Translations under genes and position numbers: made by a program
Origin: an uncultured Acidimicrobiales bacterium
GTDB taxonomy: Bacteria; Actinomycetota; Acidimicrobiia; Acidimicrobiales; SHLQ01
NCBI GenBank assembly: GCA_937969345.1
Contig: CALBVK010000246.1
Location: forward strand, 463 to 64,462
Length of the DNA: 64,000 nt
Direction: 5' to 3'
Part shown: positions 1,248-61,868 of the stretch, one piece after another
Position numbering within the stretch: position 1 is the stretch's first letter
How the letters are laid out: the number at the start of each line of letters is the position of its first letter
Notes under the pieces: generated by a model
What the model saw: the letters and a program-made list of their open reading frames with translations, nothing else
Database searches by the model: none
Told to the model about the DNA's origin: nothing

Positions 1248-2366
1248 CTAGCTCCGCTCGCGGAGCGCATCGGCTTCGACGAGGCTAATCTCCGCAGCTG
1301 TGCCGGCCGGGGTAAGGCTCACCCAGGTCTGGCCTGGTGCGAGCCCAATGATGTCGCCCTCAGGTGTCGTCAACGTAAACGGATCACGAGGGAAATCACG
1401 GGTCCATTCGCCCTCGATACGGAAGCCACCCGAGTAGACAACAACCGGTCCGCCGCCCAACGTGATGGCATCGACCGAAGCACGGTCGATCTGGCTCGGC
1501 AGGTAGGTCGTTGTCAGAACAACGACGTTGGCCGGAGTGATATGGACTCCGTCGCGAGTCACGTGGGGGTCATCACCCTGGAAGCGTAGATAGCCACCGT
1601 CCTGGGATGACCAGACATACACGGCGTCGGTTCGAGCCGAGATTCGCACGCCCGCTGAACCAGCGCCGAGGTCGATGACGTTGTCGGAGTAGTCAAAGAT
1701 CGGGGCTGGTGGTTCGCCGCCATCTGCTCGCTCGACCAATGCAGCTGCGTCGGCAACGAGATTGTTCGGTGCCCGGAAATCGCCAATACGCTTGAATTCC
1801 GAGTGTCCAAAGTCGGCGCTGGAACGGATCAACAGTCCTTCATTCTCGGCGGCACGAAGCTGTCCGCTCACCCCATCGTTGGCTCCCGAATAGGCAAAGA
1901 CCGGACGGTTCAGGTTCGAGACAATATCGACGTCGGAGGTACGGCCCGAACGCACGGAACCAACTTCGGTTGGCAGTTCCGAATGGAACACCGACGCAAA
2001 GCGGGTCGCCTGCTGCTCGATGCGTTCCTCGTAAATGATGTCGGCCTTGTCGAGTCCCATGAGCGCTGCACGAGCAGCAGCATCATTGTTCGAGACCTTA
2101 ATCACGACCGCTGCATGATTTGGCGAGTCATCGTCGCCAATCGGCTCACCGGTGAGCGGAAAGACGGGACCAAGGTCAGGGGCTTCGGTCGTCGTCGTTG
2201 TGCTCTCGGTGGTTGTTGGAGCGGTCGTTGGCGCTTCGGTGGTTGTGGTCTCGACGGCCGTGGTGGTCGACGACTCTGCGGTCTCGGCGTCGTCACCCCC
2301 GCCGCATGCAGCGGCAACCATGCCGAGCAGCGAAAGAACGGCGAGCAGACGGATCAACTTGTGCAT
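1248..2366 (-). CDS. Secreted lipoprotein, DUF3048-like
   Basis: Signal peptide with lipobox MHKLIRLLAVLSLLGMVAAAC, then a Thr/Glu-rich linker. The body (PLTGEP...AVVIKVSNNDAAARAALMGLDKADIIYEERIEQQATRFASVFHS...SVRSGR) resembles the DUF3048/YerB family as I remember it. Its ATG overlaps the upstream gene's TAA by 1 nt (TAATG). Confidence 0.7.
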   Translation of the reverse strand: MHKLIRLLAVLSLLGMVAAACGGGDDAETAESSTTTAVETTTTEAPTTAPTTTESTTTTTEAPDLGPVFPLTGEPIGDDDSPNHAAVVIKVSNNDAAARAALMGLDKADIIYEERIEQQATRFASVFHSELPTEVGSVRSGRTSDVDIVSNLNRPVFAYSGANDGVSGQLRAAENEGLLIRSSADFGHSEFKRIGDFRAPNNLVADAAALVERADGGEPPAPIFDYSDNVIDLGAGSAGVRISARTDAVYVWSSQDGGYLRFQGDDPHVTRDGVHITPANVVVLTTTYLPSQIDRASVDAITLGGGPVVVYSGGFRIEGEWTRDFPRDPFTLTTPEGDIIGLAPGQTWVSLTPAGTAAEISLVEADALRERS

Positions 2367-3112
2367 TACAACTCCCAGAGGACTTCGATTCGGTGGTCGA
2401 GGGGAACTCGCTGCGCTGCAGGAGGGATCAGCAAGGCTGCTCCCAATGAGTCCGCACCCGGAATATCTGTCGACCGCCCGTCGATTCGCTCTAATGCAGA
2501 GCGGAGCCCCGGTGGGTACCGGGTTAGCCCAACACCAGAAATATCAAACGAAATCACGCCCGCGTCGCCGGTTCCCCAGCGGCGGGCCAAATCGCGTTGT
2601 GCTCCAGTGATGAACGGATGTGCAGATGCCGCGAGGGTCTCGAAGGTGACCGCTCCCGTCGACATCTTGGTGAGACCGTGGGCGACGACGCCCTCCATCT
2701 CCATAACGTTGAGCTCGCTGAGTAGGCCGGTCGTCGCGATGAGCGCATCGTTGCGGCCCGATACCGAGATGAGGTTGCACGCCGGGGTATCGATTACGAG
2801 CAGCTCTGGCTGATCGATTCCCGAGGTGAGACACAGGTTTTCGACGGTGTTGCGAATGCGCTGTCCCTCGGTCTGACCGAGCGGGCGTGCGTCGAGCGAA
2901 CGGATGATTGCGTCGTCGGAGCGGTACCAGAAGTACCACACGGTCGCAGCGGCAGCCGGCAGCGAAAGCAGGGCAAGGGGCCACCACGCGAACCCGAGAA
3001 GTAGAAAGATTAGAAAGACCGCGAGAGCGGGGATTGCAAAGATCGCAAGAATCCTGGTGGGCATGCTCACCTTCAGCGTTGGGGCGTCATCATGATAGGG
3101 CGGTAATCGCAC
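2366..3112 (-). CDS. Membrane protein with an HtpX/M48-like fold but a degenerate metal motif
   Basis: Two N-terminal TM helices. The block GIDQPELLVIDTPACNLISVSGRNDALIATTGLLSELNVMEMEGVVAHGLTKM parallels the HtpX region ending in AHELSHI, but reads AHGLTKM (Glu and second His missing). Alternative start ATG at 3064. Confidence 0.5.
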   Translation of the reverse strand: MRLPPYHDDAPTLKVSMPTRILAIFAIPALAVFLIFLLLGFAWWPLALLSLPAAAATVWYFWYRSDDAIIRSLDARPLGQTEGQRIRNTVENLCLTSGIDQPELLVIDTPACNLISVSGRNDALIATTGLLSELNVMEMEGVVAHGLTKMSTGAVTFETLAASAHPFITGAQRDLARRWGTGDAGVISFDISGVGLTRYPPGLRSALERIDGRSTDIPGADSLGAALLIPPAAQRVPLDHRIEVLWEL

Positions 3113-3124
3113 CTTGCGGGACCA

Positions 3125-4213
3125 CTACCGAATCGAATGCTCCATGGTGATGGCTCGACGGTACGCATCGAGGTAGAGGTCGGCGAGGCGACGCATCGAG
3201 AACTCGGCCACCCGTTGCGAACCGCTGGCGATGAGCATCTGACAACGAGCCGTGTCCGTGAGGATCTCGTGCAGGGTGGTCGCGAGACGAGCAACGTCGC
3301 CGGGGGGAACAAGCGCTCCATCTGCACCTGCTCTCGTGACCTTTGCGTACCCGGGAATATCGCTGGCAACAACAGCGGTCTCGGCCGCCATTGCTTCGAG
3401 GAGGACGATCCCAAAGGACTCACCGTGGAGCGATGGTGCGCAGAACACGTCGGCTCCACGCATCCGCGCAATCTTCTCGACCTCATCGATCTCGCCGAGC
3501 CACTCGATGCGAGGATCGTCGCCGTGGAGACGTCGGAGCTCATCGGTTTCAGGCCCGACACCGCCTACCCACAGACGACTTGTATTGGGTAGACGGTCGA
3601 ACGCCTCGAGCAGGACCGCAAGCCCTTTGCGCTCTTCGTGTCGAGCAATAAAGAAGATGGTCGGACCTTTGGTCGGTGTGGGCGTTCCGTCGCGAAAGCG
3701 CTTGACCTCGACCGCGTTGAACGCCCGCTCGTAGGTTCCGCCCAGCGCATCGATAGCCAGGGCCTCAGCATCGTCGGAGACCGCGAAGCGGATCGCAAGC
3801 CGATTCGCCCCACGCGAGGTGAGCGGCTTAAAGACGTCGTACGCCACGCTATGGCCGGCTCGGTGGAACGTGCCGATCATCGGCGCTGGCTTCACCAAGA
3901 TCGCCGTCATGGTCGGCCCAGGTGCCATTGGCTCGTGCAGGTGCAAGATGTCGAACTCTTCGTCGCGAAGCGCCCGGATCGTGCGGAGCTGCGCTGCTGG
4001 GTCGGGAGCGAGGGGAACGATCGATCCGTTGGCGCCGGTCGGTACACAGTTGCCAAGTGGTGTCACGAAGGGCTCGGGTGGCGGCCCATCGCACGGTCCG
4101 AGTACTCGTACCGACTCGCCTCGGGCCCGAATGGCGCGGGCCAGTCCGAGGATCTGGCCCTGCACGCCGCCAGGAACCGTCAGGCTGTACGGGCTGATCA
4201 TGCCGATTCTCAT
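3125..4213 (-). CDS. pimA: GT4 glycosyltransferase, PimA-like phosphatidylinositol alpha-mannosyltransferase
   Basis: MRIGMISPYSLTVPGGVQGQILGLARAIRARGESVRVLGP plus the C-terminal GT-B motif FCAPSLHGESFGIVLLEAMAA. It sits downstream of pgsA and the acyltransferase as in M. tuberculosis Rv2612c-Rv2610c. ATGA overlap with the upstream gene. Confidence 0.85.
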   Translation of the reverse strand: MRIGMISPYSLTVPGGVQGQILGLARAIRARGESVRVLGPCDGPPPEPFVTPLGNCVPTGANGSIVPLAPDPAAQLRTIRALRDEEFDILHLHEPMAPGPTMTAILVKPAPMIGTFHRAGHSVAYDVFKPLTSRGANRLAIRFAVSDDAEALAIDALGGTYERAFNAVEVKRFRDGTPTPTKGPTIFFIARHEERKGLAVLLEAFDRLPNTSRLWVGGVGPETDELRRLHGDDPRIEWLGEIDEVEKIARMRGADVFCAPSLHGESFGIVLLEAMAAETAVVASDIPGYAKVTRAGADGALVPPGDVARLATTLHEILTDTARCQMLIASGSQRVAEFSMRRLADLYLDAYRRAITMEHSIR

Positions 4214-5184
4214 TGAAGCGAACGCAACTTCTCAGGGATTGGACGTCCGAGCGCTCGAAAGTCGCTCGGCCAGCCCGGTTGCAGGACATGCCACTGTTCG
4301 GGCGCCTTGCGAACAAAGCGTTCGAGTTCGTTGGCCAGGTCTTGGGTCACTCGCTGCACGTCATCGCGAAACCGGCCCTCGCGTTCGAGAGAAACCGATG
4401 GTCGCACCTCGGCGAAGTGGCGCTCCCCGTCGAAGTACACGGCGACGGGAAGGATGGGCACGCCGGTTCGAAGTCCGACCATGGCTGGTCCAGCTGGAAG
4501 CAGCGTTCGTTCGCCAAAGAAGTCAACGGGAACGCCGACAGCATCAGCAACGACGCGATCGGAGAGCAAACACACCACCGAGTTCTTGGAGAGCGCATCG
4601 AGAATGGCAGGGCCGGCGTCGGGCCCAACGGGGACCACATCCATACCCAGAGACTCCCGAAACGACTTGAACCACTCAAACAACTCCGGCGGCTCAAGCG
4701 GCTCGACAACCGCCGTAACCCGGAACCCATGGATCTTCGTCAGCCAGAACGCCGCCCATTCCCAGCCGCCGAGATGCGGCAGCACGAGCACACAGCCCTT
4801 GCCTGCATCGAGTGCTTCGGTGATGTGTTGAAAGCCGTTGTAGTGAAACCCATCATCGATGGTCTGCGCGTCGAGAGACGGCAGCCGGAAGCTGTCGAGG
4901 TAGTAGCGGCCATAGGCGCTGAAGGTTCGAGCGACGACCTGGCGTCGTTCCGTGGCCTTGAGCGGACGGCCCGTTGCTCGTTCGATGTTTCGTTCGACGA
5001 TGACCCGACGGTCACCGGCGAACAACGAGGCGAGCGTTCCACCCACCGTGACCGCGAAGTGGCTCACCGGGCGGGGCACGTAGCGCGCCGCGACGGCGGC
5101 CAGCTTGTGCGTTGTTGTGCTGTCGAGACGGAAAGACATGGGGCCGGCCAAAGCCGAAGTCAGCGCCGATCGGTCTTGCGCCAA
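4210..5184 (-). CDS. Lauroyl/myristoyl (HtrB/LpxL-family) acyltransferase, PatA-like PIM acyltransferase
   Basis: 324-aa ORF between pgsA and pimA, the position of Rv2611c. It has a family-like core (GCVLVLPHLGGWEWAAFWL ... VCLLSDR). Alternative start ATG at 5139 would remove the 25-nt overlap with pgsA. Confidence 0.75.
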   Translation of the reverse strand: MAQDRSALTSALAGPMSFRLDSTTTHKLAAVAARYVPRPVSHFAVTVGGTLASLFAGDRRVIVERNIERATGRPLKATERRQVVARTFSAYGRYYLDSFRLPSLDAQTIDDGFHYNGFQHITEALDAGKGCVLVLPHLGGWEWAAFWLTKIHGFRVTAVVEPLEPPELFEWFKSFRESLGMDVVPVGPDAGPAILDALSKNSVVCLLSDRVVADAVGVPVDFFGERTLLPAGPAMVGLRTGVPILPVAVYFDGERHFAEVRPSVSLEREGRFRDDVQRVTQDLANELERFVRKAPEQWHVLQPGWPSDFRALGRPIPEKLRSLQ

Positions 5185-5861
5185 CGGGCCGATGCAGGCT
5201 CGCGAGACGTTCGACGTGCCTCACGGGCCCGACGGCGGTTGACGGGCCCAGGTGGAGGCGTAGGACGGCCGACACTCGCCTGCTTCCAGACCTTGAAGAA
5301 CCGCTGGATTGCCGTGATCGCGGTAAGGGCCAACATCACCCACAGAACGCCGAGTAGCAGCGTCTCGTTGAACGCCCCGAGAAAGAGACCGAAGCCGAGA
5401 GCAATAAAGCGTTCGGCACGCTCCATGAGGCCACCTTTGGCGTCGAATCCGAGGGATTCTGCCTTGGCCCGCTGATAGCTGATCATGATTGCCAGGCCCA
5501 TGATGGCGACGGGAAGCATGTGGATCTGCCCATCACGGGTCACCGACAAGTGCCAAGCCACGCCGCAGAACAACATGATGTCGGTCAACCGGTCCGAAAC
5601 CGAATCGAAGTATGCGCCGCGCATCGATGATGTCCCGGAGGCCTTGGCGATCGCCCCATCGAGCAAATCGGGCAAACCGGTCAGAACCATTAGCACGAGC
5701 CCTGCCGCGAGATTGCCCGAACCAATGACGACCGCGGCCACCGCTGACATGGCAATACCGACGAGCGTCATCACATCGGCGGTGATTCCCATATTGACCA
5801 GGGCGGCGCCAACCGGCTGCACTCCCCTGTCGACCTGTTCTCTCATATTTCCATCGAACAT
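5160..5861 (-). CDS. pgsA: CDP-alcohol phosphatidyltransferase (phosphatidylinositol phosphate synthase, PgsA1-like)
   Basis: CDP-alcohol transferase motif DLLDGAIAKASGTSSMRGAYFDSVSDRLTD (D-x2-DG-x2-AR...G-x3-D-x3-D type), multiple TM helices, and synteny with Rv2612c. Confidence 0.85.
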   Translation of the reverse strand: MFDGNMREQVDRGVQPVGAALVNMGITADVMTLVGIAMSAVAAVVIGSGNLAAGLVLMVLTGLPDLLDGAIAKASGTSSMRGAYFDSVSDRLTDIMLFCGVAWHLSVTRDGQIHMLPVAIMGLAIMISYQRAKAESLGFDAKGGLMERAERFIALGFGLFLGAFNETLLLGVLWVMLALTAITAIQRFFKVWKQASVGRPTPPPGPVNRRRAREARRTSREPASARWRKTDRR

Positions 5862-5974
5862 GGGAAACCTCCCTGCCTACGTTCGAGTAAAGGCTAGCCG
5901 TCATTGCAGCGAGCGACATATGTGCAGCGGACTCCTCGCCCCGACCACCCATCGGCGCCGGGTAGCATGACGGT

Positions 5975-6469
5975 ATGGGAGATCGATACGACAGCCTTCA
6001 GCCCGCCAGCCTCATTGCGTCCATGACGTCGATGCCACGCCGGTGGAAGGACGGAATGCGGGTCAATCCGCCCAAGAACATCGATGACTACTTCACCGTC
6101 GATGGCGAGCAGGGTTCGCCAGCCGAACACGTCGGCGCAGCTATTGCGCAGTTGTCGACGCTCAGCGACGCTATTCGCACCACGAGCTACAACGTCCCAG
6201 AACCGCTAGCGAGCACTGTCGTTGCCGCGGCCTCAAACAGCGGCTCGGGTCCGTGGCCAGATTCTGCTTCTGCGGGCCTAGCCGAGCTGACACGCCTGTT
6301 CGAAACGCTGACAGGCCAGCTTCAACAGCTCAACCCGCGGGACTGGAACAAGTCCGCTGATGCTGGTTCGACGATGCTGACCGTTTTGGCGCTCGCTCAA
6401 GGCGCGAGTCGGGTCGCCGCCGATCGGCTGGCGATCGTCGAGCGCACGGTTCGTACGCTGGCCGACTAG
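5975..6469 (+). CDS. Hypothetical protein
   Basis: 164-aa ORF filling the gap between flanking genes, with GC-rich third positions. No motif recognised. Confidence 0.45.
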   Translation: MGDRYDSLQPASLIASMTSMPRRWKDGMRVNPPKNIDDYFTVDGEQGSPAEHVGAAIAQLSTLSDAIRTTSYNVPEPLASTVVAAASNSGSGPWPDSASAGLAELTRLFETLTGQLQQLNPRDWNKSADAGSTMLTVLALAQGASRVAADRLAIVERTVRTLAD

Positions 6470-6473
6470 TCGG

Positions 6474-7004
6474 CTACTCGGCAGGTTCGAGTGCAGCCCA
6501 GTCTTCCGGGTTGTCCTCGACGAGGATCGTGATGACCTCGCCGTCGACACCGTCGACCATGGCAAACCCGCGGCTCTTCGGCGGCGACTCATTCGAGTAC
6601 AGGAGAATGCGCCACGTCGGACGGCTGCGAAGTCCGCGCCATGCCATCTGCGCAGACGCGTGTCCGACCGGAAAGCCCACGGCCTTGGTGGCTTCGACAA
6701 GCGCGTCTTGTTCGTCGACGGCAAGGTTCCATCCGCCCTGGATGTGGTAAAGCCCAACCACGATGAGTCCGACTGCGGCGAGGGCAAGCCCGCCGTTCAT
6801 CAATGGCGAAGTATCGGCGCGTCCAAGAAACCAAAGCACGAGGAGCGCCCCACCAATCAACAGGTACAAGACACCGGGAATTCGGCGCTTGCTGTTGTTC
6901 GGGAAGAGGTACGGCCCAACGAAGTCCGCAGCGTTCAGGTCGTCTGGGAGTTCATCGACGTATTCGTCGTCATCAACCATTGGATCGACATCTTCGGTAG
7001 CCAC
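6474..7004 (-). CDS. Hypothetical membrane protein (acidic N-terminus, two TM helices)
   Basis: 176-aa ORF with hydrophobic segments IPGVLYLLIGGALLVLWFL and GGLALAAVGLIVVGLY. No family recognised. Confidence 0.5.
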   Translation of the reverse strand: MATEDVDPMVDDDEYVDELPDDLNAADFVGPYLFPNNSKRRIPGVLYLLIGGALLVLWFLGRADTSPLMNGGLALAAVGLIVVGLYHIQGGWNLAVDEQDALVEATKAVGFPVGHASAQMAWRGLRSRPTWRILLYSNESPPKSRGFAMVDGVDGEVITILVEDNPEDWAALEPAE

Positions 7005-7081
7005 AACGAGATGATACGCCCGAGGAGCGCGAGCGACACAGCCGTGCGATGAGGGTCACCCCACCATGGGCGTCACACCAA

Positions 7082-7627
7082 CTATTGGGCGATCAGACCT
7101 TCGACATCGGCGCTCAACGAGCCGTAACCACTCGTGCGCCACGTACCGTCGTCGTTGATGAACACGTACGTGCTCTGGCGGGTAACCCCAAAACGGTCCC
7201 AGATGTCATCAGCATTGTCGAGGTGTCGGAATCCCTCTACACCGGTCTCCTCGATGAACTCTTGCATCGCTGCGGAGTCGGCGAGTCCCGGCACGCCAAT
7301 AAACGTGACCTCGTCGCCAAACTGTTCCTGGACCCCTACGACCGTAGGAGCTTCACGGCGTCAAAACGGTCACCAGGGCGCCCAGAACCAGAGCACGACA
7401 TCTTCACCTTGCAGCGTGGCCAGATCGACCGTTGTCCCGTCGAGCGTTGCAAACTCTCCCGAGAGCGTTTCCTCGGCAGGTACAGCGGCTGTGTCATCCG
7501 CGGCAGCGGTATCGCTCGCGGTCGTCGTTCCGCCGCAGGCGGATGCGACGAAGCCCATGACGAGTGCGACTGCCAACAAGCGTCGAAACAGCGGCCCCGA
7601 ACCGGTTGAGCGTTTCGTCGACTGCAT
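7082..7627 (-). CDS. TlpA/ResA-family thioredoxin-fold thiol:disulfide oxidoreductase lipoprotein with TGA codons at both positions of the CxxC motif (candidate U-x-x-U selenoprotein; alternatively a pseudogene)
   Basis: Track ORFs 7370..7777 and 7082..7294 are in the same frame. They are separated only by TGA at 7370-7372 and TGA at 7361-7363. Read through, the frame gives ...DVVLWFWAPW-TGA-PF-TGA-RREAPTVVGVQEQFGDEVTFIGVPGLADSAAMQEFIEETGV...STYVFINDDGTW.... The likely start is ATG 7627 (MQSTKRSTGSGPLFRRLLAVALVMGFVASAC, a lipoprotein-type signal), which avoids overlap with the HIT gene. Confidence 0.6.
7332..7351 (-). promoter_or_regulatory. SECIS-like hairpin downstream of the two in-frame TGA codons
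   Basis: The mRNA sense is GCUCCUAC-GGUC-GUAGGGGU: an 8-bp stem (two G-U pairs) with a GGUC apical loop. The loop starts 17 nt after the second UGA and 26 nt after the first. As I recall, the E. coli fdhF SECIS presents a GGUC apical loop about 18 nt after its UGA. Confidence 0.45.
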
Positions 7628-7700
7628 AGGACCACAATACGGCGCGCTGAATCGATCGAATGGCACTCCCGCCAATTCTAACGAGTCACTTACCGTCTGT

Positions 7701-8270
7701 TCATTTCGTTGGCCAGGCCGCCCGAAGCCGCTTCCACGAATCACCGAGACTCTCGGGGAGCACCCGGGCCTCAGCAATGCTCGTCATGAAGTTCGTGTCG
7801 CCGCTCCAGCGGGGCAGGACGTGCACATGTATGTGATCCGGCACGCCGGCCCCGGACGCTCGTCCCAGGTTCATACCCATGTTCACCCCATCGGGTTGGT
7901 ACTCGACTTTGACCGCTTCGATCCCCATACGCACACCAGCGAACAGCTCGATGTAGGTGTCCTCGTCCAAGTCTTCGACGTTGACGGCCGCCTTCTTGGG
8001 CAGCACCATCAGATGTCCTGATGTGTACGGGTAGGCGTTGAGCAACGCAAAGCAATGCTCGCCACGCCACAACACATAGGTCACCGAGTCGTCGAGGCCC
8101 GACTGCTCGATCCCCTCGAACAGCGTCAATCCCTCGACATGTCCCTTCGACCGCTCATCGTCGTCGGCCAGAATGTAGGGAATTCGCCAACCCGACCACA
8201 GACGCGGCATCTGGTCACCGCCGGCGAGCGTGTTGTCGAGCGGTGAGTCGCCGACGTTAGGACTTGGCAT
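7701..8270 (-). CDS. HIT-family nucleotide hydrolase/phosphorylase (Rv2613c-like)
   Basis: Histidine-triad motif GAGVPDHIHVHVLPRW. It lies immediately downstream of thrS, as in mycobacteria. Confidence 0.85.
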   Translation of the reverse strand: MPSPNVGDSPLDNTLAGGDQMPRLWSGWRIPYILADDDERSKGHVEGLTLFEGIEQSGLDDSVTYVLWRGEHCFALLNAYPYTSGHLMVLPKKAAVNVEDLDEDTYIELFAGVRMGIEAVKVEYQPDGVNMGMNLGRASGAGVPDHIHVHVLPRWSGDTNFMTSIAEARVLPESLGDSWKRLRAAWPTK

Positions 8271-10221
8271 CGACTTCGGCGGCGAGACGTGCGATGAAAT
8301 CCTCGACGCTCACGTCGCGGTCGACCTCTTGCACACCGCGCTCGTTGACACCAACCGTTGAGTTTGCGACGTCGTCGTCGCCGACGACGAGCACGTACGG
8401 AGTCTTTTCGACCTTGCCCTTGCGAACGCGTTTGCCGAGCGGGTCGGTGGCCGGGTCGATCTCGACGCGGAATCCAGATTCTTTGAACTTCGCCATGATC
8501 TCGTACGCGTAGTCCTCGTGCGCCTCAGCAACCGGAAGCACCTTGATCTGGACCGGCGCAAGCCAGGCCGGGAAGTTGCCGGCGTAGTGCTCGATAAGCA
8601 CGCCAAAGAACCGCTCGATCGATCCCATCAACGCGCGATGGATCATGACGGGACGTTTGCGCTCGCCGTCTTGGGCCACGTACTCGAGGTCGAATCTGTC
8701 CGGAAGGTTGAAATCGAGCTGGATCGTTGACAATTGCCACGCACGACCGATCGCATCGCGAACGTCGACGTCGATCTTGGGCCCGTAGAACGCGCCGCCA
8801 CCCTCGTCAACGACGTAGTCGAGGCCCTGCTTCTCGAGCGCAGCCTTGAGCCCAGCCGTCGCAGAGTCCCAGATCTCATCGTCGCCCACCGACTTTTCGG
8901 TCGGACGAGTCGACAACTTTGCTTGGAAGTCGTCAAAGCCAAAGGCCCGCAGCACGGACAGGACAAAGTCGAGCAACGAGGCAAGCTCGTCCTCGATCAT
9001 CTCTCGTGTGCAGAAGATATGGCTGTCGTCCTGGGTGAACCCGCGGCTGCGCATAAGACCATGAACAGCACCAGAAAGCTCGTAGCGGTACACGGTTCCG
9101 AGCTCGAAGATGCGCTTGGGAAGATCCCGATAGGAACGCTGATCGCTCTTGTAGATCATCACGTGGAACGGGCAGTTCATGGGCTTCGGGTAGTACGTGG
9201 CACCGTCCATTTCCATGGGCGGGTACATACCGTCGGCGTAGAAGTCGAGGTGACCCGACGTCTCCCACAGCACCGACTTCGCAATGTGCGGGCTAAAGGC
9301 AAAGTCATAGCCGCCGTGCTCGTGACGGTCGCGGCTGTAGTCCTCCATGATCTTTCGGATCAGCGCACCCTTCGGGTGCCAGACCGACAGACCAGGACCG
9401 AGTTCTTCGGGCCAGGACACGAGGTCCATCTCTTGAGCGAGCCGACGATGGTCGCGCTTCTCGGCCTCTTCGAGACGATGCAGATGTGCCTTCAGGTCCT
9501 TCTTGTTCGACCATGCCGTGCCGTAGATGCGTTGGAGCATCGGACGCTTCTCGTCGCCTCGCCAATAGGCGCCAGCGACCTTCATGAGCTTGAAGTGCTC
9601 GAGCCGTCCCGTGCTCGGCACATGGGGCCCCGTGCACATATCGAGGAACGTGTCGGAGTTGCGGTAGTAGCTAACAACATCGCCGCTTACCTCCCCAGCG
9701 TCCTCGCTCGCGGCCGCACCGCTCGCAACATTCTGAATGATCTCGAGCTTGTAGGGCTCGTCCTTAAACAGGTCGAGCGCCTCGTCGACCGACACCTCAT
9801 GACGTTCGAAGGGCTGATCGGCCTTGACGAGTTCCTTCATTCGCGACTCGATTGCGCCGAGGTCGTCGTCCGACAACGTCTTGCCATCGGGAAGGTCGAA
9901 GTCGTAGTAGAAGCCATGCTCGATCGGCGGACCGATCGCAAAGCGAGCGCCCGGGTGCAGGTCCAAGATCGCCTGCGCCATCAGGTGCGCCGTCGAATGA
10001 CGGATCGTGTGCAGGCCCACGTCATCGGAGCCCGTTACCAACGCGACAGAGGCTCCATCGTCGAGCGGAACATCCAGATCGACCTCAACACCGTCGACGA
10101 CCGCGATCAACGCAGCTTTTGCGAGACCCGGGCCGATATCGGCCGCAAGGTCGGCGGCAGTCGCCCCAGAGGACAACTCGCGGGTTGATCCATCGGGCAG
10201 GGTGACATTTACAGCGCTCAT
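8257..10221 (-). CDS. thrS: Threonine--tRNA ligase
   Basis: 654-aa ORF with an N-terminal TGS-like domain and the editing-domain motif HSTAHLMAQA. The class II core includes FSPHIAKSVLWETSGHLDFYADGMYPPM and RGFTQDDSHIF. A C-terminal anticodon-binding domain is present. Confidence 0.97.
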   Translation of the reverse strand: MSAVNVTLPDGSTRELSSGATAADLAADIGPGLAKAALIAVVDGVEVDLDVPLDDGASVALVTGSDDVGLHTIRHSTAHLMAQAILDLHPGARFAIGPPIEHGFYYDFDLPDGKTLSDDDLGAIESRMKELVKADQPFERHEVSVDEALDLFKDEPYKLEIIQNVASGAAASEDAGEVSGDVVSYYRNSDTFLDMCTGPHVPSTGRLEHFKLMKVAGAYWRGDEKRPMLQRIYGTAWSNKKDLKAHLHRLEEAEKRDHRRLAQEMDLVSWPEELGPGLSVWHPKGALIRKIMEDYSRDRHEHGGYDFAFSPHIAKSVLWETSGHLDFYADGMYPPMEMDGATYYPKPMNCPFHVMIYKSDQRSYRDLPKRIFELGTVYRYELSGAVHGLMRSRGFTQDDSHIFCTREMIEDELASLLDFVLSVLRAFGFDDFQAKLSTRPTEKSVGDDEIWDSATAGLKAALEKQGLDYVVDEGGGAFYGPKIDVDVRDAIGRAWQLSTIQLDFNLPDRFDLEYVAQDGERKRPVMIHRALMGSIERFFGVLIEHYAGNFPAWLAPVQIKVLPVAEAHEDYAYEIMAKFKESGFRVEIDPATDPLGKRVRKGKVEKTPYVLVVGDDDVANSTVGVNERGVQEVDRDVSVEDFIARLAAEVDAKS

Positions 10222-10319
10222 AGATCAAGAAATACTACCGTCTTACCGACACAACGTTTGGTGTCTATCGAGCTAGTGCAACTAGCCTCGGTGATAGCGC
10301 GGCGTACGAAGGGAAGTTC

Positions 10320-11357
10320 ATGAAGCTCAGGACCCGATCGCTAGCGGTTGCTTCGGCGACCATAATGGCCTCCACGCTGCTCGCCGCCTCGCCGGCGGCC
10401 GCGCAGGAGACATGTGGCGGCCAAGCGGCAACGATCGTCTCAGACGACGCCGTGATTCGTGGAACCGAAGGCGTCGACGTCATCGTTGCTGGCGACGGCA
10501 ACAACCGAATCGAAGCCCTAGGCGGCGACGACTTCATCTGCTCACGGGCTGGCGATGACGAGATCATCGCTGGCGACGGCGACGACTTCATCCGTGCTGG
10601 TGGCGGTGCAGACGTCGTGTTCGGCGGTGCCGGCGACGACAGCATGTTCGGCGGCTGGGGCGGAGATACCCTCAACGGCGGCGACGGAATCGACCGCATC
10701 TGGGGCGAACAAAACCAGGACATCCTCAATGGCGGAGGCGGCGACGACATCATTCGTGGCGGCTTCGCGATCGACATCATGAACGGCGGCGCAGGAAACG
10801 ATCTCATGGTCGCCGGCTTTGGCCGTGACGAGGTCTTCGGAGGCCTCGGAGACGACCGCATGTACGGCCAGGGCTACGCCGACGTCATGGACGGCGGCTT
10901 CGGCAACGACTGGATCCACGGCGGCCCCGGCCCCGACGACATCCTCGGTGGCCGCGGTAGCGACACGATCATCGGCGGACCCGACGACGACTTCTTGCTC
11001 GGCGATGACGGCAAACAATACGACGAAGGTGGCACCACGATCACCCACCCCGGCGAGGCCGACATCATCAACGGCGGTCCGGGGAACGACTACCTCGGCG
11101 GCGAGGGTGGCAACGACATCTTGTTGGGCAACCAAGGACTCGACGTCGTCGACGGCTTCCACGGAAACGATCGGGTCGAGGGCAACCTCGCAAACGACCT
11201 ACTCAGCGGAGGCGCAGGCAACGACGTGCTCATCGGTGGCAATGGTGCCGACAAGTGCTGGCCAGAGTTCGTCGTCGTAAGCGCAGGCGTCGTCCCGCCG
11301 ATCAACGCCAACGACAGCACCCGAGAGTGTGAACAGATCAACCAGATCCTGAACTGA
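10320..11357 (+). CDS. Secreted calcium-binding protein with RTX-like (hemolysin-type GGxGxD) repeats
   Basis: Sec-type signal MKLRTRSLAVASATIMASTLLAASPAAAQ. It is followed by more than 20 degenerate nonapeptide repeats (GGDDFI, GGAGDDSMFGGWGGDTLNGGDGIDRIWG, GGPGNDYLGGEGGNDILLG ...). Confidence 0.8.
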   Translation: MKLRTRSLAVASATIMASTLLAASPAAAQETCGGQAATIVSDDAVIRGTEGVDVIVAGDGNNRIEALGGDDFICSRAGDDEIIAGDGDDFIRAGGGADVVFGGAGDDSMFGGWGGDTLNGGDGIDRIWGEQNQDILNGGGGDDIIRGGFAIDIMNGGAGNDLMVAGFGRDEVFGGLGDDRMYGQGYADVMDGGFGNDWIHGGPGPDDILGGRGSDTIIGGPDDDFLLGDDGKQYDEGGTTITHPGEADIINGGPGNDYLGGEGGNDILLGNQGLDVVDGFHGNDRVEGNLANDLLSGGAGNDVLIGGNGADKCWPEFVVVSAGVVPPINANDSTRECEQINQILN

Positions 11358-11535
11358 TCGGCAAAGGCCGGGCGGCTCCGCCGCAATTCTCCGGCCTTCG
11401 CGGATCAGCCTGCTCGTCCCCTCCGGGAGGACGTTGTATTGCCTTACCCCTTCGGGGATCGGCAAACTCGAGTTTGTCGCTGACGCTCCAAACATCGCCG
11501 ACGGCTCTTCAGGAACAGTAGGCGTTGGTCGGTTG

Positions 11536-12687
11536 TTATAGGGCTATTCCTAGTAGGGCGGCGGCTGCTTTTGTTCCGTGTCCTGTGGCTGCTGCTTCGT
11601 CGATCGCTGCGAGTGCTGTCGGGACGTCGAGGTCGTCATCGAGCGCCTCGCGTACTGCATCGAGCGGACCTTCCCCAGAACCCGCTGCCCGCCAGCGAGC
11701 GAGTCGGTCTGTCGCCTCCAACAACAGCTCGTCCTTCCACTCCCACTCGGTCGTGCGATAGTGCTGAGACAGCACAGCGAGACGCACCACCATCGGGTCG
11801 TGGTTCGCGATCAGGTCGTGCACAAAGATCAGGTTGCCGGTCGACTTCGACATCGGCTCCCCCTCGAGGTGAACGCACGATTGGTGTGTCCAATGCCCCG
11901 TCGATGGGACCCCTGCGGAGTCGAGTTGGGCCGCGCAGAACTCATGATGTGGATAGACCAGATCACACCCCCCTCCGTGCAGATCCATGGTGCCGAGCTC
12001 GCGCATGGACAGAGCCGTGCACTCGATGTGCCATCCGGGGCGACCGCTCCCCCACGGCGCCTCCCACGACGGTTCGTCGAGCGCCGATGGTTGCCACACG
12101 ACCGTGTCGAGCGGATGTTTCTTGCGACGATCGGTTGGATCCTCGCCGCGCCGCTCGCCGATCGTGCGCATGTCGACTCGCGTGTATCCGCTGATCGACC
12201 CAAAGCCGGTCGACGCATGGTGGTCGAAGTAGACCCACCCGTCGACCACATAGGCGGCACCGTCGTCGAGCATGCGCGAGATCAGTCCGCGAATGTCGGG
12301 AATTGCTGAGGTGGCTCTGGGCTCACTCCATGGTTCGAGCACCCCGAGCGCCTCCAGGTCGTCATCGAAGCGTCGCTTCTGTCCGAACGCAAGGTCGAGA
12401 TAGTTGACCCCGTCGCGCCGGGCACGTTCGAGTAAATCGTTGTCGATGTCGGTGATATTTCGCACCATACGGACCTCGTGACCCCGGTCGACCAGACGCC
12501 GATGCAGCACGTCGTACGTGACATAGGTGGCCGCGTGCCCCATGTGCGTCGAGTCATATGGGGTGATGCCGCAGATGTAGATCCTGGCGATCGAACCCGG
12601 CGAGAAGGGACGGACCATCCCGGTCGCCGTGTCGTAAAGCTGCATGTCGACCATGCGATTGACGCTAGCGGGCGAGCTCGCTCGCAC
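11536..12687 (-). CDS. mshC: Cysteine:1-D-myo-inosityl 2-amino-2-deoxy-alpha-D-glucopyranoside ligase (mycothiol ligase MshC; CysRS paralog)
   Basis: Class I synthetase core ICGITPYDSTHMGHAATYVTYDVL and a KMSKS-like PMSKSTGN. At 383 aa it lacks the CysRS anticodon-binding C-terminus, as MshC does. Starts at 12654 or 12645 are also possible. Confidence 0.75.
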   Translation of the reverse strand: MRASSPASVNRMVDMQLYDTATGMVRPFSPGSIARIYICGITPYDSTHMGHAATYVTYDVLHRRLVDRGHEVRMVRNITDIDNDLLERARRDGVNYLDLAFGQKRRFDDDLEALGVLEPWSEPRATSAIPDIRGLISRMLDDGAAYVVDGWVYFDHHASTGFGSISGYTRVDMRTIGERRGEDPTDRRKKHPLDTVVWQPSALDEPSWEAPWGSGRPGWHIECTALSMRELGTMDLHGGGCDLVYPHHEFCAAQLDSAGVPSTGHWTHQSCVHLEGEPMSKSTGNLIFVHDLIANHDPMVVRLAVLSQHYRTTEWEWKDELLLEATDRLARWRAAGSGEGPLDAVREALDDDLDVPTALAAIDEAAATGHGTKAAAALLGIAL

Positions 12688-43591: not shown

Positions 43592-43663
43592 CACCAGTTC
43601 GCGCATGTCACATGCCGCATCTCCGATGTGGCCATATTCCTTGCCTGGTTTACCCTAGCCACA

Positions 43664-45832
43664 ATGACTTCGCCGCTGCTCCGCCGCGCCCGAACGGGCC
43701 GACTCGGGGGCATCGTCGCGGGTTGTCTGCTCGCAACGACCCTTGGGATTGCGCCCGCGGCAGCTCAAGAGGCCGGGCCCGACGAATCCCCGGCTCCCCA
43801 CATCGATAATTCGGTTGACGAAGAGTCCATTGGTGACAGCGAGCTCGCCGAGTTGGCGGCCGATCCCTCGAGAGCGCCACAAGGCACCACCGTCGATGTC
43901 GAGGTCTACGGCCCAGACCTCGAAATCGTCACCGCGGCGATCACCGCGGCGAGCGGTGAAGCGTATGCACGAGTGCCCGGCTTCTTCGTCGAAGCCCGTG
44001 TGCCAGCGTTCGCGCTCGAACGGTTGAACGCAGCCAACGGCGTCACTCGAGTGGCCCAAGTAACAACCGCGATTCCGGCCTCGCAATCCCTGCAGATCAA
44101 TCCTGCATTGACGAACACCGTCGAGAACACCCTGCAGCTCAAACCCTGGCACGACGTTGGACACAAGGGAGTGGGGCAAAAGGTCGGCATCCTCGACATC
44201 TTTGGCACCGAAGAACTCGAGTTTGCGATCGCACAGGGTCGCGTCCCCGCCCCAGCGGGCACCTTCTGCCAGGAGAAAGGTCGCTCGTGCGCGATCACGG
44301 TCCGCAACGGCGGCCCCCACGGTGTAGCGGTAGCGGAGATTATCCACCGGGTCGCCCCCGACGCAGAGTTGTACTTTGCCACGGTTGCGACCACCGGAGA
44401 CCTCGCCGCGGCGATCGACTGGTTTGCAGAGCAGGGCGTCACCGTCATCAACAGGTCGGAAACCTCCGAATTCGACGGCGCCGGCGACGGCTCCGGGCCG
44501 ACAGCGGCATTGGTCAACCGGGCGGTGTCGCACGACATGGTCTGGGTTGCCGCGGGCGGAAACGCCGGAGGCAGCGAGGACCGTCCCGGACAGAACTGGA
44601 TCGGCCAGTTCAACGACCCGGACGGCAACGGGTTCCACAATTGGGCCGACGGCTCGGAGCGCATGGGCTTCACGTGCGGTTTCCTTCTCGGCATGCGTTG
44701 GGACGACTGGGACACGTCGACGATCGCCACCGACTACGACATCTGGATCTACGACGACGAGGGGGACCTCACTCCCGAAGCCCGCGGCGAGGACACCCAG
44801 AACGAAGCCGCCCACCGGCCGCTCGAGCACATCGAAACTCGCTGCTCGGGATCGACCGACCGCGACTACCTCGCGATTCGCCGCTTCGGAGACCCCCAGC
44901 CCGACGGCGTCGACACCATCCAGATCCTCGGCAACCAAACGCTGATGGATGAATGGGTCAACGCCGGCGCCGCCACTGGTCCTGGCGCCGACTCACGTAG
45001 CACCGGAGCGCTAACGGTGGGAGCGACCGTGCAGCCCGCAAGCCCGCTGCTGGCCGACTACTCCTCGCACGGGCCGACTCTCGACGGCCGGAACGGCGTC
45101 GATCTTGCGGGCCCGTCATGTCTGCCGGTTCCCGACTTTTTCAACTTCTGTTTCTCAGGGACCAGCGCAAGCGCACCAGTGGTCAGCGGTGTCATGGCGG
45201 TCATGCGTGGCGCTCGAGTCATCGAGTCCGCCACCGAAGCCGAGGCGCTGATTCCGCTCATTACCTCGGACCAAGGCGAACCCGGCGCAGACACCCGCTA
45301 CGGCCACGGCAGCCTTTCGCTCCCCGGCCCCGTAGATCTAAACGCTCGCGCCTTCCTCCCCTCTTGTGCCGGTGTCCCTGCAACGATTGTTGGTACCAAC
45401 GGCGATGACGTGCTCGTGGGGACAGAACGACGAGACGTGATCTTCGCCGGGCTCGGCAACGACACGGTCAATGCGCTCGGCGGGGACGATCTCATCTGTG
45501 GCGGCTTTGGCGAGGACATCATCGACGCTGGCGATGGCAACGACACGATCCTCGGTGGTCCCGGGGCCGACCAGATACGCGGTCGGGGTGGCGCCGACGA
45601 CATCAACGGCGGCCACGGCCACGACGACATCGAAGGCAACGCTGGAAACGACGACCTAAAGGGCTTTACCGGGCGCGACTACGTCAAGGGAGGCCTTGGT
45701 GACGATGTGGTCTTCGGCGGCGCTGGGAACGATCGGCTCGTGGGCGGCAAAGGTCTCGACGAGCTCTTTGGCGGAAACGGCGTCGACCGCTGTCGCGTGC
45801 CGGCCGAAACAATGGTGAGCTGCCGCCCGTAA
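43664..45832 (+). CDS. Secreted subtilisin-like (S8) serine protease with C-terminal RTX-like calcium-binding repeats
   Basis: Signal MTSPLLRRARTGRLGGIVAGCLLATTLGIAPAAAQ. Catalytic-triad contexts are VGILDIFG, GPHGVAVAEII and FSGTSASAPVVSGVMAVM. The C-terminal repeats read GTNGDDVLVG...GLGNDTVNALGGDDLICGGFGEDIIDAGDGNDTILGGPGAD.... Confidence 0.85.
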   Translation: MTSPLLRRARTGRLGGIVAGCLLATTLGIAPAAAQEAGPDESPAPHIDNSVDEESIGDSELAELAADPSRAPQGTTVDVEVYGPDLEIVTAAITAASGEAYARVPGFFVEARVPAFALERLNAANGVTRVAQVTTAIPASQSLQINPALTNTVENTLQLKPWHDVGHKGVGQKVGILDIFGTEELEFAIAQGRVPAPAGTFCQEKGRSCAITVRNGGPHGVAVAEIIHRVAPDAELYFATVATTGDLAAAIDWFAEQGVTVINRSETSEFDGAGDGSGPTAALVNRAVSHDMVWVAAGGNAGGSEDRPGQNWIGQFNDPDGNGFHNWADGSERMGFTCGFLLGMRWDDWDTSTIATDYDIWIYDDEGDLTPEARGEDTQNEAAHRPLEHIETRCSGSTDRDYLAIRRFGDPQPDGVDTIQILGNQTLMDEWVNAGAATGPGADSRSTGALTVGATVQPASPLLADYSSHGPTLDGRNGVDLAGPSCLPVPDFFNFCFSGTSASAPVVSGVMAVMRGARVIESATEAEALIPLITSDQGEPGADTRYGHGSLSLPGPVDLNARAFLPSCAGVPATIVGTNGDDVLVGTERRDVIFAGLGNDTVNALGGDDLICGGFGEDIIDAGDGNDTILGGPGADQIRGRGGADDINGGHGHDDIEGNAGNDDLKGFTGRDYVKGGLGDDVVFGGAGNDRLVGGKGLDELFGGNGVDRCRVPAETMVSCRP

Positions 45833-60418: not shown

Positions 60419-60585
60419 GATAGGTCCTCCAGGAATACCAAGAAGCCCTGCCAGAGGTCCTTTCGGACACCTAGCCTCCACTCGCCATTGATCACGCTAT
60501 CACCACTCATTCGCGCAGATGGTGCATTTGTTCGCGCGCTGCGTGTTACATCGATGTAATTTGCCTCGCAGATTTGTCAGTCACG

Positions 60586-60629
60586 ACAAAACGGCACAAG
60601 CCCGACCCCACGCTCGGTGGAGTCGGGCT
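60586..60629 (-). terminator. Intrinsic terminator after recA
   Basis: The minus-strand RNA is AGCCCGAC-U-CCAC-CGAGC-GUGG-G-GUCGGGCU followed by UGUGCCGUUUUGUCG. It begins 20 nt after the recA stop. Confidence 0.6.
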
Positions 60630-60648
60630 GGAGGGCCACTACTCCGCG

Positions 60649-61710
60649 TCAGTCTTCAAGAAGAATTGGCTCGTCGTCAGCCTCGGTGAAGCCTTCTTCA
60701 GAAATATCGATTGCTTCCTCTTCTTGCGGATCCGGCATCACCAGTTTGGTGACACGGTCGGTAATTTCGACCATGACCTCTGGGTTCTCCGTCAAGAAGT
60801 CCTTGGCCTTCTCTCGGCCCTGTCCAAGCTGTTCGCCCTCGTAGGTGTACCACGCACCGGATTTCTTAACCACGTCATGTTCGGCTGCGAGGTCGAGCAC
60901 AGACCCCTCTCGACTAATACCCACGCCGTACATGATGTCGAACTCTGCTTGGCGGAAGGGTGGCGCAACCTTGTTCTTGACGACCTTGACACGGGTGCGG
61001 TTACCAACAACCTCTGCACCCTGCTTGATCGATTCAATACGGCGGATGTCGAGACGTACCGACGAGTAGAACTTGAGTGCACGACCGCCAGGCGTGGTCT
61101 CGGGCGAACCGAACATGACGCCAATCTTCTCGCGCAACTGGTTGATGAAGATGCAGATCGTGTCGGTCTTGTTCAGGTTGGCGGTGAGCTTACGAAGCGC
61201 CTGGGACATCAGTCGAGCCTGAGCACCCACGTGGTGATCGCCCATATCGCCTTCGATCTCAGCCTTTGGCGTGAGCGCTGCAACCGAGTCGATAACGATG
61301 ACATCGAGTGCACCGGATCGAACGAGCATGTCGCAGATCTCGAGCGCTTGCTCACCGGTATCTGGCTGGGAGATCAGCAAGCTGTCGATGTCGACGCCGA
61401 TCGCCTTGGCATAGATCGGGTCCATGGCGTGCTCTGCGTCGATGTACGCACACGTTCCACCGTTGCGCTGCGCCTCGGCAACGACGTGGGTTGCAAGCGT
61501 CGACTTACCCGAGGACTCCGGACCGTAGATCTCGGTCACTCGACCACGAGGCAGGCCGCCTATGCCGAGGGCGAGATCCAATGCGAGTGCGCCGGTAGGA
61601 ACACTTCCGATTGCGAGCGAGCCCTTCTCGCCCATCCGCATGACGGATCCCTTACCGAACTGCTTCTCGATTTGGCCAAGTGCCATGTCGAGTGCCTTTT
61701 CACGCTCCAT
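60649..61710 (-). CDS. recA: Recombinase RecA
   Basis: From ATG 61710 (AGGAG upstream): [28 protein letters not shown], then the Walker [12 protein letters not shown], and [22 protein letters not shown] and [37 protein letters not shown]. No intein. Confidence 0.97.
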
Positions 61711-61725
61711 TTGGATTCTCCTTCG

Positions 61726-61792
61726 CTCGCCGTGGCGAGTTGTGATTGTGCTCGCCACCAGGCGAGATGTGATTGGTCTCGCTTCGAGCGAG
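61726..61792 (-). promoter_or_regulatory. Three tandem hairpin units in the recA 5' leader
   Basis: The mRNA sense is ...AUCAC-CUCGC-UCGAA-GCGAG-ACCAAUCACAU-CUCGCC-UGGU-GGCGAG-CACAAUCACAA-CUCGC-CACG-GCGAG-CGAAGGAGAAUCCAA-AUG. The period is about 26 nt, and each stem is preceded by AAUCAC(A). Confidence 0.7.
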
Positions 61793-61868
61793 GTGATAGC
61801 GCAAACCCTACGGATGGGGTGTGACACGATCCTGCGAACGCAATTTTCCTAACGACAGGAATGTAATT

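Follow-up and report, generated by a model that had tools for sequence, protein, structure and literature searches.

The 2007 paper on SelL reportedly described bacterial SelL genes in which a single in-frame selenocysteine insertion sequence (SECIS) serves both selenocysteine codons. Here we analyze a gene of comparable layout on a 64,000-nucleotide (nt) stretch of contig CALBVK010000246.1 from an uncultured Acidimicrobiales bacterium; this whole stretch is called the window below. The gene, located on the minus strand at 7082..7627, encodes a thioredoxin-fold protein, is interrupted by two in-frame UGA codons (UGA1 and UGA2), and carries a hairpin with a GGUC loop (7332-7351) downstream of both. 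Judging from its conservation and covariation among orthologues, this hairpin is probably a SECIS serving both UGA codons.

A single SECIS serving two UGA codons that lie two codons apart has been put forward before. PMC4989117 presents SelL (Shchedrina et al. 2007) as such a case. Sequences of the UxxU type also occur in the marine GOS “Prx-like 2” family (PMC2398784), and a “Prx-like thiol:disulfide oxidoreductase, UxxC/UxxU” is listed elsewhere (PMC9312934, PMC13188914). For the large subunits of Group 4b [NiFe] hydrogenases, which contain a UXXU motif, a single downstream SECIS has been proposed for both UGA codons (PMC13582414). Our locus resembles SelL and the Prx-like UxxU proteins in that selenocysteine would replace both cysteines of a CxxC box in a thioredoxin fold, a single SECIS is presumed, and the habitat is aquatic or marine. 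In contrast to them, it encodes a predicted DsbE/DsbF-type lipoprotein of Acidimicrobiales. The protein scores 17 bits against the NCBIfam model NF040769 (SelL_rel_redox; cut-off, 120) and is not a member of the SelL family; no NCBIfam model reaches its cut-off with it. The UXXU hydrogenases differ further, being unrelated proteins from different organisms in which the motif ligates a metal rather than forming a redox box. The strings WFWAPWU, UPFU, and related ones were absent from the GOS supplementary files, a weak negative since line wrapping or nucleotide format could hide them. Given that reading of UxxU by one SECIS has already been described, the value of the present locus lies in the quality of the example and not in a new principle.

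Two UGA codons at the active site of a DsbE/DsbF-like protein

The translation of 7082..7627 around the two UGA codons reads ...GEDVVLWFWAPW*PF*RREAPTVVGVQ..., and the minus-strand RNA at this point is UGG UGA CCG UUU UGA CGC CGU GAA GCU CCU ACG GUC GUA GGG GUC. With each UGA written as U, the CxxC box of the protein becomes WFWAPW-U86-P-F-U89, both cysteine positions being UGA. When U was replaced by C, the protein matched the Pfam families Redoxin (1.1e-14, 55 bits; cut-off, 26.6) and AhpC-TSA (1.2e-11, 45 bits), and its nearest solved structures were Mycobacterium tuberculosis DsbF (3IOS, 2.4e-25) and DsbE/MPT53 (1LU4, 4.9e-24). It has what defines the TlpA/ResA/DsbE group, namely, a Redoxin/thioredoxin-fold domain with W-x-x-W-C-x-x-C at the start of helix 1, the cysteines in this case being UGA. 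Because the active sites WAPWCPTC (3IOS) and WTPWCPFC (1LU4) align residue for residue with WAPW-U-PF-U, both catalytic cysteines (U86 and U89) of this predicted exported thioredoxin-fold oxidoreductase are encoded by UGA. In about 75 database homologues as well, it is the CxxC cysteines that align with the two UGA codons. DsbE and DsbF are oxidoreductases of the same thioredoxin-like kind, exported by actinobacteria, and their active site W-[AT]-P-W-C-P-x-C occupies the same position; DsbE has CPFC where the window protein has UPFU. The mycobacterial proteins, however, use cysteine and have no SECIS, and the window protein shares only about 45-56% identity with CxxC relatives.

The N terminus consists of a basic and hydrophobic stretch ending in A-S-A-C31, which resembles a lipobox and reads as an export signal by its motif. 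The hydrophobic stretch, with [AG]-C after it, recurs in three truncated orthologues (P0067, P0079, and P0080, described below) and in the CxxC homologues. Based on the lipobox motif, the product of 7082..7627 is predicted to be a lipoprotein. The signal peptide also contains F-R-R-L-L-A (R15-R16; 7582-7587, minus strand), and an RR pair precedes the hydrophobic core in two of the three truncated orthologues as well. This pair may indicate export by the Tat rather than the Sec route, which, if true, would be relevant for a protein that possibly folds before export.

A protein search recovered about 75 full-length CxxC homologues with 32-56% identity, together with three fragments that stop exactly at ...WFWAPW (P0067, P0079, and P0080). 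The contigs encoding these fragments all read TGG TGA CCN TTT TGA, followed by the same hairpin; a full-length annotated UxxU version was absent from this protein database search, which returned truncated fragments only. We also scanned one genome per species, 185,579 species in all, with the pattern TGG-TTY-TGG-GCN-CCN-TGG-TGA-N6-TGA, leaving the hairpin unspecified. Among the 63 loci obtained, 61 are genuine orthologues from about 55 species genomes, and two are chance matches in Proteobacteria. The genuine loci belong almost entirely to metagenome-assembled genomes (MAGs) of Acidimicrobiales, including Ilumatobacter and “Candidatus Microthrix.” UGA1 is also present in L001-L003, orthologues that were found without any DNA pattern. 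A six-frame regular-expression search over all fetched loci counted 72 UxxU and 15 CxxC forms, the latter all from the metagenome scan described below, and no mixed UxxC or CxxU forms. The comparisons below use 62 distinct sequences for the loop, 60 aligned sequences (A1) for the stem, and 56 distinct genes for codon usage.

Several carriers have more than one copy. Tandem UxxU duplicates occur in L024, L025, L026, L030, L043, and L054, some of them with WYWAPW in place of WFWAPW, and five MAGs (JBCCIC, CALLGK, CAZEMU, CALHTB, and CALJSB) have UxxU on two or three contigs each. All of these copies keep the GGUC hairpin. Public gene calls split the gene, at 6001-6309 in L001, 384-710 plus 741-1001 in L002, and 1381-1737 plus 1768-2028 in L003. 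The N-terminal open reading frame (ORF) ends at ...WFWAPW, and L002 and L003 have a spurious 86-residue ORF that starts from a GTG inside the hairpin. The UxxU family looks unannotated as a selenoprotein. The gene is mis-annotated publicly, and since gene callers cut it at the first UGA, a clade of exported redox enzymes from abundant aquatic Acidimicrobiales is invisible to them.

Beyond the UGA codons, the invariant or near-invariant residues of the protein (W, F-G, Y, D-D-G, Y-G, and two Leu) are each written with two to six codons, and no insertions or deletions occur around the UGAs across the orthologues. Since these residues are kept while their codons vary synonymously, the downstream half is translated in frame. 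A reassigned genetic code is excluded, because TGA is the ordinary stop codon in 18 of the 52 window ORFs and also ends the directly preceding HIT gene (7701-7703).

Structure and conservation of the GGUC hairpin

Read along the minus strand, 7372-7332 has the form UGA-CCG-UUU-UGA-CGCCGUGAA-GCUCCUAC-GGUC-GUAGGGGU. The original prediction, made from the window sequence, proposed an eight-pair hairpin here with a loop at SECIS-like distance from both UGAs. Re-reading the sequence gave the same eight pairs (from the loop outward, C-G, A-U, U-A, C-G, C-G, U-G, C-G, and G-U) and the same distances to the start of the GGUC loop, 17 nt from UGA2 and 26 nt from UGA1.

The SECIS of Escherichia coli fdhF is the closest described element. 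Its minimal 17-nt upper stem-loop exposes G23 and U24 and has a bulged U17, and its 4-base-pair (bp) apical stem is followed by two further pairs starting 11 nt after the UGA (PMC8659212). We verified the fdhF sequence in 5,413 E. coli records at ≥99% identity; its GGUC loop starts 18 nt after the UGA, which confirms the distance of about 18 nt given in the original prediction. The element of the UxxU genes has an identical GGUC loop and a 4-bp apical stem, then an irregularity and two to three more pairs, and it is likewise part of the coding sequence, directly behind the UGA. Measured from UGA2, the loop starts at 17 nt versus 18 nt in fdhF and the core at 10-11 nt versus 11 nt, while the GU corresponding to G23-U24 lies at 22-23 from UGA2 and at 31-32 from UGA1. 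Relative to UGA2, the candidate element is the fdhF design shifted by 1 nt. Unlike fdhF, it has no bulged U17, at whose level most orthologues have a 1x1 C.A mismatch and the window copy a normal pair, and no extended lower stem taking in the UGA; moreover, it is shared with another UGA 9 nt farther upstream, and the host is an actinobacterium.

According to PMC13188914, bSECISearch expects a stem of 4-16 bp that bears a 3-9 nt loop, with G at loop position 1 or 2 and usually G or U next, a UGA-loop spacing of 16-37 nt, and a folding energy no higher than -7.5 kcal/mol. The original prediction had given a spacing of roughly 16-37 nt for loops starting with G. The window element lies within all of these limits for both UGAs, with a 4-nt loop, an 8-bp stem, GG at the start of the loop, and spacings of 17 and 26 nt. 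The bSECISearch model assumes one UGA per element, whereas here two lie inside the allowed spacing. Rfam SECIS families gave no match at the gathering threshold over the whole window, nor at E values up to 10 within 7250-7450; bacterial SECIS elements are thinly covered by Rfam (bioRxiv 10.64898/2026.04.03.716425).

From the window sequence alone, the hairpin stands only marginally beyond chance. An isolated 27-nt hairpin has an energy of -11.1 kcal/mol (z = -2.6), with 2 of 200 shuffles being as stable, and the 20-nt hairpin of the window has one of -10.4 kcal/mol. Since this single-sequence signal is marginal, the case rests on the comparison with other sequences. GGUC is invariant and in the same position in 62 of 62 distinct sequences, including all 60 aligned orthologues, in which the UGA-loop spacing shows no length variation. 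In alignment A1, 86.7% of the stem cells are paired, compared with 36-62% when the 3′ partner is slid by 1-3 columns, and none of 500 shuffles reaches the observed pairing or covariation score. Three pairs have no unpaired cell in the 60 sequences: 27-36 (CG in 41, UA in 18, and GC in 1), 28-35 (AU in 53 and GC in 7), and 24-39 (CG in 52, UA in 4, GC in 3, and UG in 1). The orthologue stem is laid out as four apical pairs plus two to three lower pairs. The apical 4 bp and the loop belong to the minimum-energy fold downstream of UGA2 in 52 of the 60 orthologues, and 46 of the 60 have hairpin energies of at most -7.5 kcal/mol (median, -8.5). RNAalifold, run on the alignment only, returned this hairpin as the sole consensus structure in the 60 nt after UGA1; no second conserved structure within SECIS range was found there for the main family.

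Because counts of sequences are not counts of events, we constructed a neighbour-joining tree from the protein without the hairpin segment and mapped the pairs on it by Fitch parsimony; the tree is short and noisy, and the numbers are rough. Pairs 27-36, 28-35, and 24-39 switch state at least 12, at least 6, and at least 6 times, respectively, with both sides changing together. As reconstructed, these switches show many independent compensatory events in the stem, roughly 24 double changes or more. Some of the paired changes replace amino acids: P/E becomes A/A in L036, T/V becomes A/A in seven sequences, and a P-to-S change gives a U-A pair. The RNA pairing is therefore kept at the expense of the protein sequence. 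Third-position changes in the Pro and Val codons of the stem are always compensatory. Thus, on the question of whether the stem is conserved among TGA-containing orthologues, which the original prediction had left to comparison, it proves to be both conserved and covarying.

The loop codons lack synonymous variation altogether in the codon alignment of 56 genes (ACG, 49/49; GTC, 56/56; 0 bits), as opposed to a synonymous entropy of 1.1-2.0 bits at other conserved four-fold codons of the gene. Thr elsewhere in the UxxU gene prefers ACC. The original prediction had also reasoned that the same hairpin in orthologues with Cys codons would reduce it to a protein-coding constraint. As the hardest case for this comparison, we took from 241 million metagenome records those CxxC homologues in which CGGTCG occupies the loop position. 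In the 15 homologues selected in this way, only 2-4 of the 8 stem positions pair, that is, the hairpin is missing, and the nearest CxxC proteins do not have the T-V-V-E residues that encode the stem. The coordinates of the gene and the hairpin are listed in Table 1.

Table 1. Features of the UxxU gene and its candidate SECIS in the window
Feature	Position	Strand	Remarks
Coding sequence, 181-residue DsbE/DsbF-like (TlpA/redoxin family) predicted lipoprotein	7082..7627	minus	ATG 7627-7625, TAG stop 7084-7082
Signal peptide, ends in lipobox cysteine (MQSTKRSTGSGPLFRRLLAVALVMGFVASA-C31)	7535..7627	minus	Read from translation
UGA1, codon 86, first Cys position of CxxC box	7370..7372	minus	TGA in 61/61 genuine scan loci
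UUU (Phe88), codon directly 5′ of UGA2	7364..7366	minus	Codon choice unusually constrained
UGA2, codon 89, second Cys position of CxxC box	7361..7363	minus	Sequence, orthologue scan, structure alignment
9-nt spacer (CGCCGUGAA), UGA2 to hairpin base	7352..7360	minus	Length invariant in all orthologues
5′ arm (GCUCCUAC)	7344..7351	minus	Alignment columns 22-29
Apical loop GGUC, putative SelB contact	7340..7343	minus	Encoded by ACG-GUC
3′ arm (GUAGGGGU)	7332..7339	minus	Alignment columns 34-41

Decoding of the two UGA codons

We infer that the hairpin is bound by SelB, that selenocysteine rather than cysteine is inserted, and that one element acts for both codons. While UGA1 is in the A site, the hairpin would lie entirely outside the mRNA channel, its base being 18 nt downstream. 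The GGUC loop would then be presented to the C-terminal domain of SelB, which would deliver Sec-tRNA(Sec). Three codons later, UGA2 would occupy the A site, with the hairpin core starting 10-11 nt downstream, as in the fdhF geometry. The lowest pairs would probably be melted at this point, and the apical stem-loop could still hold a second SelB complex that would deliver the second selenocysteine. The resulting protein would have a U-P-F-U redox box on the external side of the membrane, which could form a diselenide or a selenol pair.

The sequence next to UGA2 shows an unusual codon bias. At least 90% of the 60 orthologues (about 58 by reading of the alignment) have U directly before UGA2 (alignment A1, column 9), and the U-ending codons found there (UUU, CAU, UAU, ACU, and GUU) span five amino acids, whereas the gene otherwise prefers codons ending in C. 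Of the 42 orthologues that have Phe before UGA2, 41 write it as TTT, whereas elsewhere the same gene uses TTC in 70-96% of cases; likewise, the Glu codon in the spacer is GAA in 84%, whereas the rest of the gene usually has GAG. These biased codons suggest a nucleotide-level context signal for the second UGA.

A divergent trio of loci from “uncultured Actinomycetes” MAGs has a different arrangement: L008 (317-376, minus strand), L041 (7546-7605, minus strand), and L052 (7711-7770, plus strand). Their motif is WFWAPW-U-[SH]T-U-[RQ]GEAPLVAQ, and although GGUC is in place, the family hairpin cannot form. Instead, there are two strong hairpins in tandem: one, CGGGGGG-AGGC-CCCCCUG, starts right after UGA2 and has its loop 16 nt after UGA1, and the other, UCGCGC-AGUUG-GCGCGA, has its loop 25 nt after UGA2. 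In these three sequences, the tandem hairpins may represent one element per UGA.

A more specific proposal would be that one minimal fdhF-like SECIS drives two SelB deliveries three codons apart, with the local context (the near-invariant U before UGA2 and the fixed 9-nt spacer) helping the second. We regard this model as speculative and rather unlikely in its full form. If true, it would amount to an undescribed rule for closely spaced double selenocysteine insertion in bacteria and would imply an extracytoplasmic diselenide oxidoreductase in aerobic marine actinobacteria; the trio with tandem hairpins would then be an alternative solution to the same problem.

Several observations weigh against the hairpin being a SECIS for both codons. 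Experiments in E. coli indicate that a SECIS tolerates little change in its distance from the UGA, which disfavors equal efficiency at two spacings 9 nt apart. Since the spacer is only 9 nt long, the ribosome at UGA2 probably melts the lowest two or three pairs. Folding of the isolated hairpin agrees with the original prediction, but in an 86-nt context (z = -1.1) the minimum-energy fold is a different one, in which GACCGU at UGA1 pairs with ACGGUC; in longer contexts of the hairpin, z ranges from -1.1 to +0.3. At pair 25-38, 41 of the 60 orthologues have a C.A mismatch and the other 19, among them the window, a standard pair; the isolated hairpin is weaker than -7.5 kcal/mol in 14 of the 60. 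Genes for tRNA-Sec, selA, selB, and selD were not found in the window or in about 0.6 Mb of related loci. Lastly, the data do not tell selenocysteine from cysteine delivered via a SelB-dependent tRNA(ReC).

The searches for the machinery comprised ARAGORN, which reported no tRNA-Sec in the 64-kb window and 60 loci; tblastn with E. coli SelA, SelB, and SelD, which gave nothing relevant in the window and all loci; and a Pfam scan of 20 window ORFs picked by size, which showed housekeeping genes only. Relatives of the host do possess it. SelD, SelA, and SelB are recorded in Ilumatobacter coccineus, Ilumatobacter nonamiensis, and “Ca. Microthrix parvicella” in Tables S1 and S2 of PMC5029168, which list 15, 10, and 7 selenoproteins for them, respectively, far above other Actinobacteria. 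Actinomarina, from the same class, has selA-D (bioRxiv 10.64898/2026.04.03.716425). MAGs named Ilumatobacter and Microthrix are among the UxxU carriers. Other selenoprotein genes nearby were sought as in-frame TGA codons with coding signal on both sides, and GGUC-loop hairpins were sought downstream of in-frame TGA codons in about 0.6 Mb; both searches found only the known family and junk frames. There is therefore no independent example of the natural spacing in this lineage.

Among the other explanations, the one with the best claim, improbable as we judge it, is that the SECIS serves one codon only, likeliest UGA2, and that the other is read by low-level near-cognate read-through or through an unrecognised second signal. 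The spacing of UGA2, within 1 nt of that in fdhF, would fit this scenario, as UGA1 lies 9 nt further away; the two tandem hairpins of L008, L041, and L052 could be one element per codon, and the U-ending codon before UGA2 hints at a site-specific context signal. Yet 26 nt is still within the natural range of bacterial SECIS elements (16-37 nt), the main family has no second conserved structure, and both UGAs are equally invariant and fall on catalytic cysteines, where any residue other than selenocysteine or cysteine would destroy the redox box. Somewhat less probable again is that the hairpin recruits SelB for a Cys-accepting, tRNA(Sec)-like tRNA (tRNA-ReC) that inserts cysteine at one or both UGAs, in which case the protein would be CxxC, UxxC, or CxxU. 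Such decoding has been raised as a possibility for the genes of the UXXU hydrogenases, and tRNA(ReC) is enriched in the genomes that carry them (PMC13582414); as for the window gene, as noted above, our data are neutral between the two residues. However, the window and loci, though little sequence, contain no such tRNA, and the related cultured genera have SelA, which makes Sec-tRNA, along with many selenoproteins (PMC5029168). Maintaining two UGAs and a SECIS in about 55 species just to insert cysteine would also seem costly, with no evident benefit.

The remaining alternatives deny the hairpin or the gene its function. GACC, formed by the GA of UGA1 and the CC of the Pro codon, exactly complements the GGUC loop, and the resulting helix of 4-6 bp (7366-7371 with 7340-7345, minus strand) might mask UGA1 or the loop as a regulatory switch. 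This helix belongs to the minimum-energy fold that the 86-nt context adopts, and the orthologues keep it 93% paired, but the complementarity of GACCGU and ACGGUC arises automatically from a UGA, a Pro codon, and a GGUC loop. Moreover, only two of its six pairs vary at all, their covariation does not exceed that of shuffles (354 of 500 as good), a Pro codon CCA, CCU, or CCC breaks a pair in 13 of 60 sequences, and a ribosome translating at UGA1 would abolish the helix; we therefore consider a switch of this kind very unlikely. Even less credible is that the hairpin is a by-product of coding constraint on E-A-P-T-V-V-E, with no RNA function. It does lie wholly within the coding sequence, the EAPTVVE peptide is conserved in the family, and the window fold is only marginally better than shuffles. 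Against this, the loop codons ACG and GUC are synonymously frozen at 100% while Thr elsewhere is mostly ACC, the stem changes are compensatory, with amino acids being replaced in complementary pairs, and the CxxC homologues, which do not conserve T-V-V-E, have no stem. Covariation, frozen loop codons, stemless CxxC homologues, and the tree effectively refute this explanation. The least credible scenario of all is a pseudogene or split gene in which the UGAs are true stops and one N-terminal fragment or two separate fragments are made. Automatic callers annotate the gene in this way, as seen in P0067, P0079, and P0080, which end at ...WFWAPW, and in the 86-residue ORF downstream in L002 and L003. 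But the TGAs fall exactly on the two catalytic cysteines, with no insertions or deletions, in about 55 species; the downstream half keeps its fold-defining residues while codons vary freely, and a split at this point would cut the thioredoxin fold at its active site. TGA placement, the absence of insertions and deletions, and coding selection downstream effectively refute this scenario too.

A SECIS serving both codons is thus the explanation we favor. The roughly 60 natural variants, with their fixed geometry and clean covariation, offer a test bed for how far SelB can reach from its mRNA anchor and for whether one hairpin can be re-used within three codons. They are also of practical interest for the design of proteins that contain a diselenide or two selenocysteines close together.

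Gene neighborhood and other features of the window

L037 is collinear with the window and 89% identical to it across 6.8 kb. L001 (76%) and L047 (72%) share the arrangement thrS-HIT-UxxU-...-pgsA with the window. When the neighbors within 3 kb of all loci were clustered in search of a conserved operon partner (e.g., CcdA/DsbD), no family was present in more than six loci; the gene context is therefore uninformative.

In the window, the UxxU gene sits in a conserved actinobacterial housekeeping block at 2366-12687, whose arrangement is common to L001, L037, and L047. The block contains a class-I Cys-type tRNA synthetase-like gene, thrS, a HIT-family gene, the UxxU gene, two small genes of unknown function, and genes for a CDP-alcohol phosphatidyltransferase, an acyltransferase, and a glycosyltransferase. 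Further along the window, a 416-residue ORF of coding-like composition at 60574-61824 (plus strand) had no Pfam match at E values up to 1e-5. Two plus-strand genes encode proteins with RTX-type calcium-binding nonapeptide repeats: one of 345 amino acids at 10320-11357, consisting of repeats only, and one of 734 amino acids at 43628-45832, in which the repeats are fused to a subtilase domain.

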